Source of the DNA: a virus | Taxonomy: Duplodnaviria; Heunggongvirae; Uroviricota; Caudoviricetes | DNA: 7,472 nucleotides | Virus record (IMG/VR): IMGVR_UViG_2660238346_000032 | Location: 1-7,472 of that record | Direction: 5' to 3' (one strand) | Shown: positions 1-7,472 of the stretch, one piece after another | Layout: each line of letters begins with the position of its first letter | Numbering within the stretch: position 1 is the first letter of the stretch | The notes under the pieces: model-generated | Database searches by the model: none | What the model was told of the DNA's origin: nothing | The model's input: the letters and a program-made list of their open reading frames with translations, nothing else | Program-made: the position numbers and the translations under genes

Positions 1-74
1 TCCGTAACGCCTCTGCCACGCGCGTAACGTGACAGGGATTAAGGGTAAACTAATTGATTTTGCAAGTTTTTATT

Positions 75-1361
75 TTACCCAGCTTTCTTATGGGGCATAC
101 ATGGGACACTTTCAGATAGTCTTTTGTTAAGGAGTTCTGTCTGTTCGTGATTGTTGTCTTTCATCCATGCTCCGTAAACATTGAATACCATTTGTGCGTT
201 TGTGTGGCCCATCTGGCTTGCGATAAAACTAGGATTAGCTCCTGCGGCAAGTGACCAGCATGCATAAGTATGCCTGGATTGGTACGATTTTCTGTGTCTC
301 AGACCTGCGCGTTTTAAGATACTTGTCCATGACTCCCTGATGGAGTCAACCTTGTAGTGAGGTCCGGACAACTGCTGCTGTTTTGTTACCTGAGGACTAA
401 AAACAAAAGTGCATTTATGCACAGCAGTTCTCCCATATTCCCTCTGCTTCACCTCTACAGAATGTTGCTTTCCAAGCATGGTCATTTCCGCCTGGCTTTT
501 AAGAGCATCAATAGCTGGTTGAACCAGATGAATTGTCCTTCCGGTGCCTGCATCGGTTTTTGGTGGAGTGAATTCGCCAAGTTTTGTATAATTTCTACGG
601 ATGGTTATAGTCCTTGCTTTAAGGTCTATATCTTCCCATGCCAGCGATACCAACTCCCCGTGACGAATACCCGTGTATACAGCGAGAATCCACAGGTTTT
701 TTGTTTGTTGATGACGGCAAGCCTCAATAAAACGAATAAATTCGTCACGGGTGAGAGGATCTGGTTTTACCTTGGACTTTTTTAAGGGAGCCAGACCGTT
801 AAATGGGTTTCCTGAGGTATAACCATTATCTGTTGCAAATTGAAACATTCCAGCTATGGTTGTCATATAGTAGTTTACCGTGACCACTGAGCGCCCTTTT
901 ATGGAAGAAGTCTTTCCATTAGAAAGCTTTTGGTAACCGGTCAACAAATCTCTCCTTACGAAAAGTAAATCCTCTTTTGTTATGGATGAAACCAGTTTTT
1001 TTTCACCTAACATTGGTAACATGTTTTTAATTACTGACTGGTAACGGTTAAGTGCATTCGCACAAATCTCAATTTTCTTAAGGTCCAACCATTTTTCCGA
1101 AAGTGCCTTAACGGTTATCTCTCTTTTTCCCAGACCAAAGTGTTTCAGGTTAGGGGAATTAGGGAACTGCGCGGCATAGTCGAAACTCCCCATTCTGATT
1201 GCAAAACAAACGGAAGTGCGAAGTTCACCAGCGATCTTCCGGTTTTTGGCTGTGTCAGGAACACCGAGGTTTTCTCTGACACGTTTGCCATTATAGTGAA
1301 ACCATATACGGAGTGATCCTCCATGGTTTTCAACGCCTGTCGGGTATGATGCGTTACTCAT
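75..1361 (-). CDS. int: Phage tyrosine integrase (lambdoid prophage Int, IntR-like)
   Basis: 428-aa ORF. ATG at 1361..1359 is preceded by GGGAGG with a 5-nt spacer. C-terminal region carries the tyrosine-recombinase catalytic signature (TGIRHGEL, SRHTYAC, MGHTNAQMVFNVYGAW, i.e. R / HxxR / Y). Overall architecture resembles E. coli Rac-type IntR as recalled from memory. It is the first gene at the left end of the block, as expected for a prophage integrase. Confidence 0.9.
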   Translation of the reverse strand: MSNASYPTGVENHGGSLRIWFHYNGKRVRENLGVPDTAKNRKIAGELRTSVCFAIRMGSFDYAAQFPNSPNLKHFGLGKREITVKALSEKWLDLKKIEICANALNRYQSVIKNMLPMLGEKKLVSSITKEDLLFVRRDLLTGYQKLSNGKTSSIKGRSVVTVNYYMTTIAGMFQFATDNGYTSGNPFNGLAPLKKSKVKPDPLTRDEFIRFIEACRHQQTKNLWILAVYTGIRHGELVSLAWEDIDLKARTITIRRNYTKLGEFTPPKTDAGTGRTIHLVQPAIDALKSQAEMTMLGKQHSVEVKQREYGRTAVHKCTFVFSPQVTKQQQLSGPHYKVDSIRESWTSILKRAGLRHRKSYQSRHTYACWSLAAGANPSFIASQMGHTNAQMVFNVYGAWMKDNNHEQTELLNKRLSESVPCMPHKKAG

Positions 1362-1394
1362 TAAACCTCCCAGACGTCCAGGAGCATTAACAGG

Positions 1395-1649
1395 TTAACC
1401 GGAACTTGCATTTTTGGCACCTGGTTGTTTCTGGTTTTCGATCCATCGCATAATTTCTTCGATGTTGTACAGGCATTCACTGTAGTGCCCCGGATCACCT
1501 TCTACAGCGTAATGGCGGTATTCTTTTCCCTGCATCCATGACTTTCTTCTTGCCCGCTCAATGGTGCCAGGCTTTAGCCCTGTTGATGCAATGAGGACTC
1601 TCTCCGTACACCATTTGCTGGGGGTTATCTGATAGATGATTGTCTGCAT
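1395..1649 (-). CDS. xis: Putative excisionase / excisionase-like DNA-binding protein
   Basis: 84-aa ORF immediately upstream of int with a 33-nt gap, in the same orientation. ATG at 1649 is preceded by GAGGT. Small basic protein (WCTERV, ERARRKSW, GKEYRHYA) in the canonical xis position. Family assignment rests on position and size, not on a verified alignment. Confidence 0.55.
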   Translation of the reverse strand: MQTIIYQITPSKWCTERVLIASTGLKPGTIERARRKSWMQGKEYRHYAVEGDPGHYSECLYNIEEIMRWIENQKQPGAKNASSG

Positions 1650-1667
1650 GCCAACCTCATAAAATTT

Positions 1668-1802
1668 TCATCCACGGCAGTGGCACCACACGTCAAACAT
1701 TCGCTTCACAACTTCACGACAGTAGAAGCCGTCAACATCTCGCGTCAGGTCATAGCGATTGCCGTAACGCTGGTGGACCCATCGTTCAAATGCTTTATTC
1801 AT
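1668..1802 (-). CDS. Small hypothetical protein (44 aa, Cys/His-containing), not in the supplied ORF track
   Basis: Hand translation of the minus strand gives MNKAFERWVHQRYGNRYDLTRDVDGFYCREVVKRMFDVWCHCRG with a TGA stop at 1668..1670. ATG at 1802..1800 is preceded by AAGGAAG with about a 7-nt spacer. It fills the gap between the upstream gene stop (1806..1808) and the xis start exactly. Three Cys and two His (C28, C41, H42, C43, H10) could form a small metal-binding site. Confidence 0.4.
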   Translation of the reverse strand: MNKAFERWVHQRYGNRYDLTRDVDGFYCREVVKRMFDVWCHCRG

Positions 1803-1805
1803 TCT

Positions 1806-2048
1806 TTACTTCCTTTTTATGGCTCGTAATTTTTTCAGGTGCTTTTCCTGCTCAGTGTCCGCGAGAATTTTGCGGTACTCCTGGTGGTCAATATGTTCGA
1901 ACAGGCTGTTGAACTCAGTGATGCGTACCCGCCCGGATCGTCCGTCCATCCGTCGAAAGAACACTGAGTGCTCAGTGATGCGAGTAATCACCACGGGGTA
2001 TCCGGCTCTGTCCGTGTATATCTGCCCGCGTTGAATCAAAGCGAACAT
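1806..2048 (-). CDS. Hypothetical phage protein (80 aa from ATG 2048; track ORF extends to a TTG at 2084)
   Basis: ORF in the same orientation and tightly packed. The first ATG is at 2048..2046 (MFALIQRGQIYTDRAGYPVVITRITEH...), preceded by a weak GGGGA SD. The track's longer 92-aa form starts at a TTG with no SD. Contains an internal RITE(H/F) repeat. No family recognised. Confidence 0.5.
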   Translation of the reverse strand: MFALIQRGQIYTDRAGYPVVITRITEHSVFFRRMDGRSGRVRITEFNSLFEHIDHQEYRKILADTEQEKHLKKLRAIKRK

Positions 2049-2132
2049 GTGGTTATCCCCATCGACAAATCGAGTACACAACAAACGCTGCTGCGAATAC
2101 CATCCCCAGAGTTACGATTGCATCAGGCCAGC

Positions 2133-2498
2133 TCATTGATTCACCTCCTGCGGCGGCTCCGGTAGCGGCATCCAGTGGGTTACTTTCGATGCCGGTTCTT
2201 CCCCATTGTCAGTAACTGCCCACCATTTGTTTCTCGAACAATCGTAATACCCTTCGAAGGTATCGCACTCAGTCCAGCCGTAAGACTTACCCCAACACCA
2301 AACATACTGTTTATCGTTCGGCATTCGCTCACTACAGCTTATCCAGCCATCCGTAGTTACCGGAGAATTGCCAGCCTTGCGCATGGCAATCTCCATGATT
2401 TCAACCATATCCCCTGGTGGAATTTTACAATGCTGACCAGTATGCCTCTGCTGTCTGGCATATTCGAGGATGTGCTCCAGCTTGGTACGATTAATCAT
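2133..2498 (-). CDS. DUF551-domain phage protein
   Basis: 121-aa ORF. The C-terminal half (WISCSERMP ... VTHWMPLPEPP) matches the characteristic DUF551 W...W / THWMPLPEPP pattern seen in many enterobacterial prophage proteins. ATG at 2498 overlaps the upstream stop as ATGA and is preceded by GGGAGA. Confidence 0.7.
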   Translation of the reverse strand: MINRTKLEHILEYARQQRHTGQHCKIPPGDMVEIMEIAMRKAGNSPVTTDGWISCSERMPNDKQYVWCWGKSYGWTECDTFEGYYDCSRNKWWAVTDNGEEPASKVTHWMPLPEPPQEVNQ

Positions 2499-3004
2499 GA
2501 TTTATCTCCCTTAAGCATGGCAGCGCGGCAGGCATCCTCTACGCCCTTAACTGCATCTGCGCAGTAGTTATAGCGATTGCATTCCACTAACTTCTGCTTG
2601 AGATTTTCAATTGATTGCGCGATATCAGCCTGTATTACCGGAGCTGGCGGAACGGCTGTCTGCACTCGAACGTCATCAGGTACTACCGGCTCTACTGCCA
2701 ACTGACTGGCATATTTGTTAATGGTAACGATAAGCTCTTGCTCGGCCTCATCCAGACAATCACCGATACCTCGCCTGTCACCATCAAAATCATCGAAATC
2801 GGCGCGAATCCTGGCAACCTCCCGGATTGCGGACAACACCTCACCAGGAATTACCGTAGAGTTGCCCGATAGTACATTCTGCTCCAGTGATGCCAGTGCA
2901 ATCCGTGCCAGCTCACGAATCTCACCGCCGTCTATATCGTCAATGTCATCACGGCCAGAAATGTTAGCCAGCCATTGCAGTCGCTCTTTGGTAATAGTGA
3001 TCAT
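2495..3004 (-). CDS. Hypothetical acidic phage protein (169 aa)
   Basis: ATG at 3004 overlaps the upstream gene stop as ATGA and is preceded by AAGGAA. Strongly acidic composition (DDIDDIDGGE, ADFDDFDGD). N-terminus MITITKERL resembles the N-terminus of the 101-aa protein at 4179..4484. Confidence 0.6.
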   Translation of the reverse strand: MITITKERLQWLANISGRDDIDDIDGGEIRELARIALASLEQNVLSGNSTVIPGEVLSAIREVARIRADFDDFDGDRRGIGDCLDEAEQELIVTINKYASQLAVEPVVPDDVRVQTAVPPAPVIQADIAQSIENLKQKLVECNRYNYCADAVKGVEDACRAAMLKGDKS

Positions 3005-3516
3005 GCCGCGTTTCCTTCTTCCTTATTAACAATTACACCGTCATATATTTCATTAAGGTGCCCTCTCAACTCCATGCGCCTTAATGCAGATAACATGTAA
3101 TCGCATTCAACCTGCTTATTCCCAGTAAATGGCTTATCGTCAGGATTACCCCAACAGCAATTACCCCTGGGCCATCCATGTACTTTCCGTACTCTTCCGT
3201 TAACAACGTGAAGTAATCCCCAGCCGGGAGGTAAATCCTCAACTGAAATAATTTCCGGCTCACTAATAAAGAATCGCCAGTCGCCCATGCCAAGTGAGGG
3301 ATTTTTACGGAAACGCTTTTTTCTATCTGCCAACAAGTCAGCACGAGAACACTTCGCTTCTATCAGGCATGATGCTGAATTTCTGAATCCCATAGCATCT
3401 GGCTGTTCTCCGGTACTGGTTACAGCTATAAAGCGGTCATGAAAACAAACCTTGAACCCGTTGCGCTTAAGGAACTTGTACGCAATCTGACAGAGTTCGC
3501 GGTGTGTTAACGCCAT
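3001..3516 (-). CDS. Putative PD-(D/E)xK-fold nuclease-like protein (171 aa)
   Basis: The track ORF runs to 3597 but would overlap the upstream gene by about 80 nt. ATG at 3516..3514 (MALTHRELCQ...) is preceded by AAGGAGAG and lies 1 nt after the upstream stop. Motif E7 ... G-E-Q-P-D40 ... L-I-E53-A-K55 has the spacing (12 residues between D and ExK) and context of Hjc/VRR-NUC/RecB-like PD-(D/E)xK nucleases. The C-terminal roughly 90 aa (GWGLLHVVNGR ... CCWGNPDD) is unrecognised. Confidence 0.55.
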   Translation of the reverse strand: MALTHRELCQIAYKFLKRNGFKVCFHDRFIAVTSTGEQPDAMGFRNSASCLIEAKCSRADLLADRKKRFRKNPSLGMGDWRFFISEPEIISVEDLPPGWGLLHVVNGRVRKVHGWPRGNCCWGNPDDKPFTGNKQVECDYMLSALRRMELRGHLNEIYDGVIVNKEEGNAA

Positions 3517-3517
3517 A

Positions 3518-4192
3518 TCACTCTCCTTTGATGCGAATGCCAGCGGCGCGTGGCACATTAACTTCCACGATGCGCACAGTTGGTTTGTACATCTCAATCG
3601 CTGTCAGCCAGTCAGCGCCAGTCATGCGCTTTTCTGCATCGCCATTAGTCCACTTAACCGGTACACCAATAGCCTTCATCGCGATTTCTATTTCCCCGGC
3701 AATGGCGCTTTTTCCGCAACCAGTAAAACCAGAAACAACGACAAGAACTTCACCTTTGGCTGGTTTTATTTCCCGTGCTTCCAGTTCAGCAATACGCTTA
3801 CTTCCATCCGAGATAACACCTTCGTAATACTCACGCTGCTCGTTGAGTTTTGATTTTGCCGACTCCAGTTGTTTTGTTAGTTCCGCAATACGGCAAACAT
3901 CGTTGATACGCGTTTCCTCTAATGCGTTGATCTCATCCAGTAGTGCCAAAGCAACCTTTGGATTAAAGGCAGCAATAAATTCAGCGTTTGCGTAAGCCTG
4001 AGCATCTGTTTCAACCAGGCAGTTAACATGACATTCTGCAATCACGCCACCGGGTTCTCCTTTCCATTTTTGGCAAACAAAAACTCCTGTTAAATTGCCG
4101 TGCTGGTTAACAGATGTATGCCCTACGATGTAGCTTCCTTTAGTTGCTTTCTCTGCCTTTTCACGCAGTGCCTGATAGTTAATCTCGCTCAC
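3518..4192 (-). CDS. Ea22-like (Ead/Ea22 family) protein with coiled-coil and P-loop-like C-terminal module
   Basis: The most plausible start is GTG at 4192..4190, preceded by a perfect AAGGAGG with a 6-nt spacer. The track's 4234 start is a TTG without an SD. N-terminus SEINYQALREKAEKATKG ... AEFIAAFNPKVALALLDE resembles the Ead/Ea22-like N-terminal domain as recalled from memory. The central segment is heptad-like (LEETRINDVCRIAELTKQLESAKSKLNEQREYYE). The C-terminus contains VLVVVSGFTGCGKSAIAGEIEIAMKAIG, i.e. a strand plus GxxxxGKS Walker-A-like loop plus helix. Confidence 0.65.
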   Translation of the reverse strand: MSEINYQALREKAEKATKGSYIVGHTSVNQHGNLTGVFVCQKWKGEPGGVIAECHVNCLVETDAQAYANAEFIAAFNPKVALALLDEINALEETRINDVCRIAELTKQLESAKSKLNEQREYYEGVISDGSKRIAELEAREIKPAKGEVLVVVSGFTGCGKSAIAGEIEIAMKAIGVPVKWTNGDAEKRMTGADWLTAIEMYKPTVRIVEVNVPRAAGIRIKGE

Positions 4193-4484
4193 TGGCTGCC
4201 TCCTTTGCTGGGCTTTCGAATATATCAAACTCAAACAACTTAACTACGTCATCAAACAGGACATAATCGCCATCAGAATCTTCAGTCATGTCAGCGCCAC
4301 AATCCTGACCGAACGAGTCACAACCACCCATATCAAGCTCGTATCGCTTGAGTTTTGCGATATTTGATAAATTCAGCGCCAGTACAGCAAGGTCATAAAC
4401 CTCGTCAGCGGTATACCCTGCACCATGCCCATACATTTCAATGCGGGATATGATTTCTTCTACACGTTGTTTTGTGATTGTCAT
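4179..4484 (-). CDS. Hypothetical highly acidic small protein (101 aa)
   Basis: ATG at 4484 overlaps the upstream stop as ATGA and is preceded by GGGAGGTGA. I count roughly 23 Asp/Glu against 9 Lys/Arg, with an acidic C-terminal tail (DMTEDSDGDYVLFDDVVKLFEFDIFE). N-terminal MTITKQRV resembles the N-terminus of the 2495..3004 protein. Confidence 0.6.
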   Translation of the reverse strand: MTITKQRVEEIISRIEMYGHGAGYTADEVYDLAVLALNLSNIAKLKRYELDMGGCDSFGQDCGADMTEDSDGDYVLFDDVVKLFEFDIFESPAKEAASERD

Positions 4485-4966
4485 TTTTGCTCACCTCCCT
4501 GTTCTTCCAGAAAAATACGCATAGCCTCAAGCATCTCTTCGGTGTCATACGGTGACAACTTGTCACGCAGGATGTGTTCAATGCTGTTAACGAACTTGCG
4601 GATTGCTTTGCGTTCAATTTCAGCCAGGAAAGCGTCTGTAGCCGGGGTTTGCGGCATACCTCCGTCTGTTGCGCAGATATACGCATCAGATAGTTCATCC
4701 TGCTCGCCATCAAACACGTAGCAACTCTGTACGATAAATTTATTCAGCCCCGCACTCTCCGCTGCCAGCGCCGCGCACTTGGCCTCAAGGTTATCAATCG
4801 TGATTCCAGCAGAACGACACTCCCGCAACGCCGTTTCTAGTTTTGATTCAAGTTCACCGAACTTACGGACAAGATATTCAGCGTTTGTTTCGTTAACCTT
4901 TAAATCTCGGGGGATGCATTTACCTTTCAGAAATCCATCCATCTCAATTAGTGACATTTGTTTCAT
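4481..4966 (-). CDS. Hypothetical acidic phage protein (161 aa)
   Basis: ATG at 4966 is preceded by GGAG. It is the first gene after a 171-bp gap and is followed by ATGA-coupled downstream genes. Acidic, with a predicted helical/coiled-coil central segment. No family recognised. Confidence 0.6.
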
Positions 4967-5137
4967 TTCTTCCCACTCCGCAACATCGCATTCAGATATT
5001 TGTTTTGATTTACTGATGGAAAAGAATTTCTCTTAAGCAATTCCTCTCTCGATGGCATTGGCTTTACGCGTTGGTGAATAATCATTTCTGCCGGAAGAAT
5101 GCCGGGGTTGTATGCAAGTCATCTCATGGTAAATTCC

Positions 5138-5431
5138 TCAGTCATTACTGATAGCGCCATAGCGTGATCGGTAATTACGCAGGCGCGGGTCAATTTCAGG
5201 GAAGTGGGTATATGTGGCTTTGCGGAATGGTCGGATTGATGTCTGGTAAATTCGCTCGCGTTCTTCTTTCTCTGCAAGCCATATACAATGGCGAAATTCC
5301 TTTTCCTCTTTCGTTTCCTGCGGTAGCGACATTATCCGGTCGTAGTTTTTTCTGAATTTATCCAGCACCTCCGATACGGAATTGCCGGAACAGCGGCGCG
5401 CGTCGTCCGCACCATAGAGAGGCGCTGGCAT
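5138..5431 (-). CDS. Hypothetical phage protein (97 aa)
   Basis: ATG at 5431 is preceded by AGGAG with a 7-nt spacer, 13 nt downstream of the ssb stop. Charged protein (KEEKEFRHCIWLAEKEERER). No family recognised. Confidence 0.55.
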   Translation of the reverse strand: MPAPLYGADDARRCSGNSVSEVLDKFRKNYDRIMSLPQETKEEKEFRHCIWLAEKEERERIYQTSIRPFRKATYTHFPEIDPRLRNYRSRYGAISND

Positions 5432-5444
5432 GATTTTCTCCTGA

Positions 5445-5951
5445 TTAAATTGCGTGAATAGCGTGACGAGGGAAGGGGAGAGTTACTGGTGCAAAGGGTA
5501 TATCGTCGTCAAAATCCATCGGAGGTTCGTTGTGTTGTGCTGGTGATGATTGCTGCTGTGGCTTCTGTGATTGCCTGCTGGCTGCTTGTTGTTTGCTGTC
5601 GCCAATGCCGCCAAGCATTTGCATCACGCCATTAATTCCGACATGAACCTCGGTTGTGTAACGGTCTTGCCCTGACTGGTCTTTCCACTTTCTGGTTCTC
5701 AGCATTCCCTCGAAATAAATCTGATCACCTTTTTTCACATACTGCCCCACGACCCCAGCCAGTTTCCCGGATACAGCAACACGATACCATTCAGTCAATT
5801 CCTTTTGCTCGCCAGTATTTTTATCTCGCCATTGTTCTGACGTGGCTATTGTCAGGTTAGCGAACGCTGTACCTGATGGTGAGTATCGAACTTCCGGGTC
5901 TTGTCCTACCCGACCAAGGATAATCACCTTATTTATCCCGCGAGAACTCAT
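5445..5951 (-). CDS. ssb: Single-stranded DNA-binding protein (prophage SSB) with atypical C-terminal extension
   Basis: Probable start is ATG at 5951..5949 ([23 protein letters not shown]...), preceded by GAGGTGGAG. The track start at 5960 is a GTG three codons upstream. The OB-fold region aligns closely with E. coli SSB ([23 protein letters not shown] ... [19 protein letters not shown]) as recalled from memory, followed by a Q/S/P-rich linker and the conserved acidic tip [11 protein letters not shown]. The ORF then continues 15 codons ([15 protein letters not shown]) before TAA at 5445..5447. Confidence 0.9.
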
Positions 5952-6415
5952 TTGCTCCACCTCTTGCCAGTTTTTATGTTGCTTATAATTGATTGAGATA
6001 CACCCATGTCTTTTGCTATCTTGTACTGACTCTCTTTTTCAGAGAGTCTTTTCCTGATTTCTATAACCTGCCACTCTGTTAATTTTGCACCATGATGAGC
6101 ATGACCTTTTTTTGCTCCACGATGCCTTCCTTTTGCTATCTTGTCGTCCATGTTTTCTTGCGCGCTACCTAAAAAGAGATGTTCAGGATTAACGCAGCAT
6201 GGGTTATCGCATTTGTGGCAAACCATCTTCCCAGATGGGATGGGGGAGTGATAAAGCTCAAAAGCAACCCGATGAGAAAGCATTGTTACGCCAAAGGCTA
6301 CAAATTTTGTGTATCCTCCTTTGTTTTTTGAATAGGTAGACTCCCAGCAACCTGTTGTTTCATTAACTTTGTAGCTGGACTCGAATCTTTTAATAATTCC
6401 GTCCAAGTGAGACAT
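5948..6415 (-). CDS. HNH endonuclease (HNH_3-type homing-endonuclease-like) with C-terminal putative DNA-binding region
   Basis: 155-aa [17 protein letters not shown] ... [42 protein letters not shown] matches the phage HNH_3 pattern (GCWE, KGGY, HR, CH.CDN..C.NP.HL). ATG at 6415..6413 abuts the upstream TAA stop (6416..6418). Its TGA stop (5948..5950) overlaps the ssb ATG as ATGA. Confidence 0.85.
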
Positions 6416-7123
6416 TTATGCCGCCTGTTTTAGTTCGTTAACTCTGATGTTCATTACATGAACGCATTTAGCCTGCGCATCCTCATTGCCAGCCATTAAT
6501 TGCCAGTCATGCTGATAACGTTCGATGAGTTTTTTCTTGTCAGTTTCTGTCGACGCATAATCGCTGAAGTCTTTCAGGATTTGTTCGCAGTCAACCGATG
6601 GAGATTTCTGGTTGGTATTTTCTGGTGATGGTTGATTGCCAGATGCTGGTATTGCCCATCCCGGCAGCGATGGAGGGGACCAGTAAAATCCTGTTCCATC
6701 CTTAAGTTTTTCCCTGTGCCATCCCTGCTTTTTATCGAGAGATGTTTGTGCGAAACCTTCCTCAAGGTTATACAGATACCGACCGATTCCCCACTGAACG
6801 GCAGCGCGCTTCATTGCACTGGAACGACCACCTTTTACGGCTTCTACCTGCGTGTTTTCAGCAGCATCCCATTTGGTTACCCATTCGGAATCAATCCTGA
6901 TTGATATGCCGCATTCAACGCCTCCGTTGTTGGGAATATCGCGGTATTCATTGCGCCATCCTGCTTTGCCGCAAACATCGTCCAGGCGTTTCATGATTGC
7001 CCTGTTCGTGACATAAGCCAGCACCATAGCCCACACCTTTCCATCGCGTGTTTTACCGCTTTGCTGTATTCGCCATTCGATATCTTCAGGGCTGAATGGC
7101 TCATCGAATTTATTCAAATCCAT
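6416..7123 (-). CDS. Single-strand annealing protein / phage recombinase, Rad52(Sak)-like
   Basis: 235-aa ORF. ATG at 7123 is preceded by GAGGTGA with a 5-nt spacer. Segment YVTNRAIMKRLDDVCGKAGW aligns position-for-position with the Rad52 core [20 protein letters not shown], and AMKRAAVQWGIGRYLY matches the conserved SSAP motif. It sits next to ssb, as in a recombination module. Confidence 0.7.
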   Translation of the reverse strand: MDLNKFDEPFSPEDIEWRIQQSGKTRDGKVWAMVLAYVTNRAIMKRLDDVCGKAGWRNEYRDIPNNGGVECGISIRIDSEWVTKWDAAENTQVEAVKGGRSSAMKRAAVQWGIGRYLYNLEEGFAQTSLDKKQGWHREKLKDGTGFYWSPPSLPGWAIPASGNQPSPENTNQKSPSVDCEQILKDFSDYASTETDKKKLIERYQHDWQLMAGNEDAQAKCVHVMNIRVNELKQAA

Positions 7124-7131
7124 AATTCACC

Positions 7132-7302
7132 TCAGAATGGACATAGCCCAAGGAAATAACGCTGATTTAATACTTCGACTCGGGACAAATTAAGGCATAC
7201 CCGCATTCCTTCGCGGTCACCATTATGGCGATACCAGAGAGCTTTCTGCGTGTATATGCGTCTCTGTAACTTGCTCTCCTTCACTGTGGTTGCAAGTGAC
7301 AT
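7132..7302 (-). CDS. Small hypothetical protein (56 aa) or remnant of a gene disrupted by the adjacent IS
   Basis: ATG at 7302..7300 (MSLATTVKESKLQRRIYTQKALWYRHNGDREGMRVCLNLSRVEVLNQRYFLGLCPF) is preceded by AGGAGA with a 5-nt spacer. The track start at 7338 is a GTG that lies inside the presumed IS end. The ORF stops 8 nt before the SSAP start. Confidence 0.35.
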   Translation of the reverse strand: MSLATTVKESKLQRRIYTQKALWYRHNGDREGMRVCLNLSRVEVLNQRYFLGLCPF

Positions 7303-7312
7303 GAATATCTCC

Positions 7313-7472
7313 TGAGGTAGCCTGAGTTTAACGGACACTCCTTCCTGAAATAGAATGGCATCAGAAGGAGCTAATAATGAGCAGAAAAACCCAACGTTAC
7401 TCTAAAGAGTTCAAAGCCGAAGCTGTCAGAACGGTTCTTGAAAATCAACTTTCGATCAGTGAAGGCGCTTCC
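7313..7472 (+). mobile_element. IS3-family insertion sequence, left end (partial; continues beyond window)
   Basis: A divergently oriented transposase OrfA begins at 7377. The roughly 65 bp upstream begins TGAGGTAGCC..., consistent with the TG-initiated left inverted repeat typical of IS3-family elements. The exact boundary at about 7313 is approximate. It resembles an IS600-like element from memory, which I could not verify. Confidence 0.6.
7377..7472 (+). CDS. IS3-family transposase OrfA (N-terminal 32 codons; truncated by window edge)
   Basis: ATG at 7377 is preceded by AAGGAG with about a 7-nt spacer. The translation MSRKTQRYSKEFKAEAVRTVLENQLSISEGAS has the N-terminal helix-turn-helix pattern (SxEFKxEAV ... 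LS.SE.A) of IS3-family OrfA proteins. Confidence 0.8.
   Translation, partial: MSRKTQRYSKEFKAEAVRTVLENQLSISEGAS

Follow-up and report, generated by a model that had tools for sequence, protein, structure and literature searches.

CGTAACG repeats at the int end of an Sp15-family prophage: a coincidence of mlrA codons in and beside a known attachment site

In phage lambda, site-specific recombination involves Int, Xis and IHF, the arm-type sites P1, P2 and P'1-3, and the core sites C and C' around a 7-bp overlap; arm-type sites, by definition, lie in phage arm DNA. Among the Shiga-toxin (Stx)-type prophages, the best comparison for the locus described here is the attL of Sp15/VT1-Sakai (also CP-933V, YYZ-2008, BP-4795 and JLK-2012), located in yehV (= mlrA) of E. 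coli O157:H7 and O55:H7: core (21 bp) and insertion point (mlrA codons 16-23) are the same in both. The attP of Sp15 was amplified and sequenced from the excised prophage of O157 Sakai (Asadulghani et al. 2009, PMC2669165), and Fig. S5 of that paper gives a core that is the same in Sp15 L, R and P as positions 17..37 of our sequence. Prophages inserted in mlrA limit csgD- and curli-dependent biofilm formation (PMC3874044, PMC5931665). The present analysis concerns a 7,472-nt stretch of a tailed-phage record of IMG/VR (IMGVR_UViG_2660238346_000032, positions 1 to 7,472), hereafter the window. A first-pass annotation of its sequence had pointed to CGTAACG direct repeats next to the integrase gene as possible arm elements of an attachment site.

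The closest genome is that of E. coli AR_0017 (NZ_CP024886.1), in which a prophage adjoining mlrA is 99.9% identical to window 1..1500. The int-xis end of the window also shows ~95-96% DNA identity to VT1-Sakai, YYZ-2008, BP-4795 and JLK-2012. The predicted Int carries two Pfam domains, Arm-DNA-bind_2 (residues 7-70, E 2e-24) and Phage_integrase (E 5e-18). Thus the left end has, as its neighbours, a gene for an arm-binding tyrosine recombinase and a gene for an excisionase, both recognized by Pfam (Table 1). That positions 1..74 lie downstream of the int stop codon, and that an attL is to be expected there, had both been proposed at first pass, and correctly: the host/phage junction maps to 17..37. 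The annotation had also named an observation that would speak against it, a junction situated further left of the window; we looked for this and it does not hold. We conclude that the left end of the window is the attL (B-O-P') of a lambdoid prophage of the VT1-Sakai/Sp15, YYZ-2008, BP-4795 and JLK-2012 family. Judged by its sequence, the feature is an already known one, the yehV/mlrA attL of Sp15-family (Stx-type) prophages, and it fits this group in every such test that was run.

Table 1. Features at and near the attL, in window coordinates. Int-binding and IHF-like entries are candidate sites.
Feature	Position	Strand	Basis or remark
Host mlrA (yehV) coding DNA outside the att core, B arm of attL	1..16	-	Non-lysogen matches; alignment to K-12 mlrA and translation
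CGTAACG copy 1	3..9	+	mlrA codons Arg26-Tyr27-Gly28 (CGT TAC GG) on the minus strand; host DNA, 8 bp outside the core
Half-site B, GCCACG (attP counterpart C = GTCACG)	15..20	+	Predicted from the inverted repeat
21-bp common core, CACGCGCGTAACGTGACAGGG	17..37	.	mlrA codons 16-23; GenBank att features; attL, attR and attP identical
7-bp overlap (strand exchange), CGCGTAA	21..27	.	Predicted; centre of the inverted repeat
CGTAACG copy 2	23..29	+	mlrA codons ACG TTA CGC (Thr-Leu-Arg) on the minus strand; inside the core
Half-site C', CGTGAC	28..33	+	Predicted from the inverted repeat
IHF-like site, AATCAATTAGTTT	47..59	-	12/13 to the consensus WATCAANNNNTTR; between core and P' units; H' equivalent
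int	75..1361	-	428-aa tyrosine integrase with N-terminal arm-binding domain; RefSeq WP_000063648.1
Candidate arm-type site P'1, ATGGGGCATAC	90..100	+	De novo repeat search of the reconstructed attP
Candidate arm-type site P'2, ATGGGACACTT	101..111	+	11 bp after P'1; same basis as P'1
xis	1395..1649	-	84-aa excisionase (recombination directionality factor); Pfam DUF1233 putative excisionase, E 2e-29; RefSeq excisionase family protein
CGTAACG copy 3	1763..1769	+	Inside a 44-aa hypothetical-protein ORF, 1668..1802 (-); 1.7 kb from the core

Many viral contigs of IMG/VR with this int begin exactly 74 nt past its stop codon, as the window does (e.g. L017, L018). Because so many contigs start at this identical spot, the left edge of the window is probably a prophage-prediction boundary, 16 nt outside the true att core. 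At the other side, the match to the VT1-Sakai family ends at ~4200, and from there to 7472 other lambdoid phages match (the PhiR12 series, mEpX2), which makes the early region of the window a mosaic. The genes beyond ~4.2 kb encode an Erf/Rad52-type annealing protein, an exonuclease, an SSB and Abc2. A scan for promoters and terminators over window 1..400 returned nothing promoter-like or terminator-like.

The limits of the core can be read from several independent records. A repeat of 21 bp is annotated in GenBank entries FJ184280 and JQ347801 ("direct repeat due to prophage insertion", attL/attR); one copy corresponds to window 17..37, and the other stands at the opposite end of the prophage. 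AR_0017 carries these 21 bp again ~49.7 kb away, at its attR, beside the 5' fragment of mlrA and btsS. The core is therefore present in attL, in attR (AR_0017 and three phage records) and in attP, both in the published Sp15 sequence (Fig. S5) and in the IMG/VR contig L093, an uninterrupted attP with one core copy that brings independent support. The unoccupied attB of K-12 is identical to it at 20/21 positions, the one difference (AAT for AAC) being synonymous. On its minus strand, window 1..37 reads as mlrA codons 16-28 (N P V T L R A W Q R R Y G), and the prophage insertion point corresponds to codons 16-23 of this host regulator gene.

A comparison with the uninterrupted bacterial locus, which had been suggested at first pass, indeed fixes both the core and the boundary. 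When 5,426 complete E. coli genomes were considered, 461 contained the full junction, and ~4,900 matched window 1..42 alone, inside mlrA. Non-lysogens align as far as position 42 because, past the core, K-12 mlrA shows a one-base gap and then five bases, ATTAA, that match the phage DNA again (window 36..42 versus codons 15-16). We are as good as certain that host DNA occupies window 1..37, that the common core is 17..37, and that phage DNA begins at 38. Codon 16 of mlrA is AAT in most E. coli, K-12 included, and their identity to attP is accordingly 20 bp and not 21; the AAC allele is found at attR in the lysogens examined. Another possible attP reference, phi330 (PV189401.1), was set aside in favour of L093 and Sp15: it contains a tandem duplicated core, 20 bp followed by 21 bp (1481..1521). 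L093 and the sequenced Sp15 attP show a single core, and the duplication in phi330 probably arose artificially when prophage ends, each with its own core copy, were joined.

The attP was reconstructed over 504 bp and searched de novo for repeats and half-sites. The best inverted repeat around the core was GTCACG-CGCGTAA-CGTGAC, a 6/6 match that spans 15..33 in window numbering; in attB, the half-sites match at 5/6 and 6/6 positions (left = GCCACG). Because of the centre of this repeat, and because related phages have the same geometry, including an exact 7-bp duplication, we place the overlap at 21..27, a placement in which we have modest confidence as to the exact base. With this overlap, the 8-bp palindrome ACGCGCGT, whose position (18..25) had been given correctly at first pass, would consist of the B half-site and the start of the overlap, and CGTAACG copy 2 would combine the end of the overlap and the start of C'. 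The second-best inverted repeat of attP, GTTGCG-TCACGCG-CGTAAC (5/6), was rejected as a core geometry: its spacer includes position 16, where attP has T and attB has C, attB contains nothing that corresponds to its left half-site, and the relative with an 83% identical Int (Stx2_12E129) has not preserved it.

A prophage joined to another gene bears on the position of strand exchange. In contig L037 (2825..2845 and flank), a prophage with the same int and core adjoins fimD, the type 1 fimbria usher gene, instead of mlrA, and this junction appears to be a natural secondary att site. Opposite GTTACGCGCGTG of the core, uninterrupted fimD has GTTGCGCGCGTG (L176 ~370..400); the fimD sequence, ...CAAGTTGCGCGCGTGTCAGG..., matches 11/12 bases of the core's GTTACGCGCGTG, with CACGCGCG and AAC in common and a mismatch, C for T, at window-equivalent position 25. 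The perfect match thus covers 17..24, and an overlap at 17..23 or 18..24 would fit the fimD site slightly better than one at 21..27. Strand exchange might accordingly occur further left, with an overlap within 17..24 (CACGCGC or ACGCGCG) and the palindrome ACGCGCGT marking the crossover. The data from Stx2_12E129, in which the attL and attR copies differ only right of the spacer, require merely a crossover left of window position 28. However, no inverted symmetry flanks such an overlap in attP, whereas GTCACG-N7-CGTGAC is perfect, and this latter geometry recurs in two sets of relatives, in one of them with an exact 7-bp duplication between CATG half-sites. Moreover, secondary att sites of phage lambda commonly tolerate mismatches in the overlap, as the fimD site would at position 25. 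We therefore regard a leftward overlap as unlikely, if still deserving of consideration, and retain 21..27 in what follows.

Between the core and the int gene, window 47..59 is the sole match with at most one mismatch to the IHF consensus in the 504-bp attP; it may be an IHF site, an assignment that we offer tentatively. A 7-bp inverted repeat, GGGTAAA (43..49) and TTTACCC (74..80) with a 24-nt spacer, brackets the IHF-like site. This repeat overlaps the int stop codon (75..77), and the terminator scan did not flag it as terminator-like.

Arm-type sites should exist in this attP, because Int has an arm-binding domain. The top repeats of the de novo search were ATGGGRCAY units, phased by 11 bp and all in one orientation. 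Counted from the core centre, the P-arm units ATGGGGCATCA, ATGGGGCATGT and ATGGGACACTT are at -151, -140 and -129, and the two P' units at +66 and +77. The motif is matched twice in the window, both times within 90..111 (0.32 expected), and over 64 kb of AR_0017 six of its eight matches form two arrays beside the core. The P' pair is kept in all 80 related IMG/VR loci (80/80), in one of them as ATGGGACAT, and the core was situated exactly 52 nt beyond the pair in each of the 39 related loci with enough flank (39/39). The number of P-arm units varies: AR_0017 has four (attR, L008 ~13,990-14,140, plus strand) versus three in YYZ-2008, JLK-2012, phi330 and L093, and this polymorphism of the ATGGGGCAT array is an indel of exactly one unit (11 bp). 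In terms of sequence, ATGGGRCAY thus behaves as expected of arm-type sites: P' has two units and P has 3-4, the motif is arm-specific, and relatives keep it.

The P' units overlap the last codons of int (S-V-P-C-M-P-H), in two different reading frames, and since they fall in different frames the repeat is not an amino-acid repeat. Conservation of the P' units could in part reflect constraint on the protein, but the different frames and the non-coding copies of the P arm argue against this. We consider that the ATGGGRCAY units are probably the arm-type sites of this Int. No description of arm-type sites for this Int family, or for Stx-phage integrases, was found in the searchable literature, a coverage that leaves out most subscription journals. 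It may be, with the balance about even, that the 11-bp-phased ATGGGRCAY and TTGGGGCA arrays serve the whole Sp15/933W integrase family (Arm-DNA-bind_2) as arm-type sites that have not yet been described, with the P' pair in the last int codons; the number of P-arm units, 3 or 4, could then tune integration and excision, and the arrangement could couple evolution of the Int C-terminus to its own sites. The P arm at attR also contains TCGTCGA-type repeats between the arm units and the core (L007 ~815..895; L008, reverse strand): two in tandem, 10 bp apart (AAATTCGTCGAAGTTCATCGAC), at ~-105 and -95, and one at -33 (CTTCGTCGAT). These repeats could be excisionase-binding sites.

The CGTAACG copies are exactly where the first-pass annotation had put them (3..9, 23..29 and 1763..1769), all on the plus strand. 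Their reading as P'-arm and core elements survives in part: copy 2 and the palindrome do lie inside the 21-bp core, but copy 1 is host DNA and no arm site. The repeats do not qualify as arm elements, copy 1 belonging to mlrA, copy 2 to the core and copy 3 lying 1.7 kb off, with the attP arms lacking the motif. Indeed, the host origin of copy 1 excludes it as an arm-type site of the phage. A search of attP outside its core, through both the P and the P' arm, found no CGTAACG, and attP immediately left of the core reads ...AAAATGTTGCGT, again without the motif. It was likewise absent from the sequenced att junctions of Int relatives and from the 200 nt of host flank at the fimD secondary-site junction.

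Taken alone, the motif count seems high: three copies in the window versus 0.41 expected, a number reached in 2 of 200 shuffles. Because the motif had been chosen after reading the sequence, a look-elsewhere control was used, based on dinucleotide-preserving shuffles. Exact 7-mer direct repeats within 7-30 nt of each other numbered 17 in the window versus 14.3 +/- 4.7 in the shuffles, and perfect 8-bp palindromes 18 versus 29 expected. Over the 64 kb of the AR_0017 prophage and its flanks, CGTAACG occurs 11 times versus ~8 expected (an estimate from uniform base frequencies), which is background. Its significance as a repeat was thus rejected both by the look-elsewhere control and by the 64-kb count. 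The motifs do exist, then, but their repetition does not exceed chance.

A constraint on the DNA beyond coding need would be expected to preserve both copies in mlrA, and orthologues of 80 species were compared for DNA-level conservation. The peptide INPVTLRAWQRRYGL is essentially invariant in these species, and CGTTACG, the minus-strand form, is present at the core position in 21/80 and at the distal position in 32/80. It follows that both copies drift freely at synonymous positions, and conservation of the two CGTAACG copies beyond coding need fails across the 80 orthologues. The pair is a coincidence of mlrA codon choice, and copies 1 and 3 are almost surely irrelevant to att.

Copy 1 might alternatively act on the host side, as an accessory of an extended attB, that is, a second partial core-like sequence 20 bp off that aids the choice of mlrA. 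It does share a 7-mer with part of the core, and it is present in the Escherichia mlrA alleles that carry the core; yet the identity stops at this 7-mer (window 2..9 = CCGTAACG, 22..29 = GCGTAACG), copy 1 is at least 12 bp outside the predicted B half-site, and the same phage family inserts at fimD without such an element. Across species, moreover, the distal copy is seen both together with the core copy and in its absence, as independent synonymous drift predicts, and we hold this reading to be very improbable. Harder still to sustain is the proposal that the three CGTAACG repeats (3..9, 23..29 and 1763..1769) are arm-type or other dedicated Int-binding elements: two copies within 27 bp where an attL is expected, the single-motif count and the arm-binding domain of Int speak for it, but neither copy 1 nor copy 2 is in a phage arm, attP holds the core copy alone, such pairs are expected by chance for a motif at background frequency over 64 kb, the copies drift across species and are absent at fimD and in relatives, and the ATGGGRCAY units are a far better arm-site candidate, so that it is scarcely credible.

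The prophage also interrupts its host gene. Insertion separates mlrA from its promoter and first 15 codons, in agreement with the loss of curli and biofilm described for lysogens (PMC3874044, PMC5931665). In RefSeq, the mlrA of the lysogen is a 233-aa CDS with an ATT start in phage DNA (window 52..54; window 1..54, minus strand; L001 853..1554), and it gains six phage-derived codons in frame (I S L P L I). The true mlrA promoter and first codons are ~49.7 kb off at attR, where they are annotated as a partial pseudogene (L008 13904..13969). As the promoter and first codons stay at attR, the 233-aa "MlrA" is a 5'-truncated gene, and it is probably an annotation artefact rather than an expressed chimera.

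A scheme for recombination at this site may be proposed. Int would be heterobivalent. It would contact the inverted half-sites GYCACG and CGTGAC (15..20 and 28..33) through its catalytic and core-binding domains, and strand exchange would take place across the 7-bp overlap CGCGTAA (21..27). Its N-terminal domain would bind the 11-bp-phased ATGGGRCAY units, two in P' (90..111, in the last int codons) and three or four in the P arm (attR, ~50 kb away), and bending at the IHF-like site (47..59) would bring the P' arm back to the core. For excision (attL x attR), the DUF1233 excisionase (1395..1649) would be required in addition. All together, we consider it very likely that the window begins with the known mlrA attL, that the CGTAACG copies are a coding coincidence and that the arm sites are elsewhere.

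The CGTAACG observation itself matters little, since it falls on the well-known yehV/mlrA attachment site. What is gained for the window is the exact host/phage boundary, with host DNA at 1..37 and the core at 17..37. Mildly new is the predicted site map for a medically relevant integrase family, comprising the half-sites, the 7-bp overlap, the P' units at 90..111 and the P-arm array. It could be of use in predicting the integration sites of Stx phages, in explaining secondary insertions such as that in fimD, and in designing excision and occupancy assays.

Compared with known systems, the prophage of the window shares its gene order, attL-int-xis ... dinI-attR, with Sp15/VT1-Sakai. Its gene set differs from that of VT1-Sakai beyond ~4.2 kb, and VT1-Sakai covers 46% of the window; also in contrast to Sp15/VT1-Sakai, the AR_0017 prophage is without an annotated stx gene and its P arm has four ATGGGRCAY units rather than three. 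As in lambda, the integrase is a predicted heterobivalent tyrosine integrase with an arm-binding N-terminal domain, xis is located beside int, and the prophage order is attL-int-xis. The candidate sites also resemble those of lambda: a 7-bp spacer lies between inverted half-sites, both arms contain repeated motifs that bear no relation to the core, and an IHF-like site is found between the core and the P' units. Unlike in lambda, the arm-binding domain of the window Int belongs to another Pfam family (Arm-DNA-bind_2), the arm motif and the core are different, the candidate P' units are inside the int coding sequence, and attB is inside a gene, so that insertion disrupts it.

The phages of the wrbA/933W type (PA12, Stx1_2409) are more distant, with an Int 66% identical and a core, GTTTCAA, in wrbA. 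Their TTGGGGCA units are also phased by 11 bp, 2 in the 3' end of int and 4 in the P arm, and the duplication is of exactly 7 bp, GTTTCAA, between CATG half-sites (CATG-GTTTCAA-CATG). Stx2_12E129 (LC567841.1) is closer, with an Int 83% identical, but its target is inside the prophage PPompW and its core, GTCATGCAGTTAA... (GTCATGCAGTTAATGTGACGG), differs. The Int of Stx2_12E129 keeps the ATGGGRCAY units, with the geometry GTCATG-CAGTTAA-TGTGAC, and dinI and the P arm are common with YYZ-2008 almost up to the core (...AAAATGTTGC, then GTCA...). In this phage, the arm module seems to have been kept while the core specificity changed.
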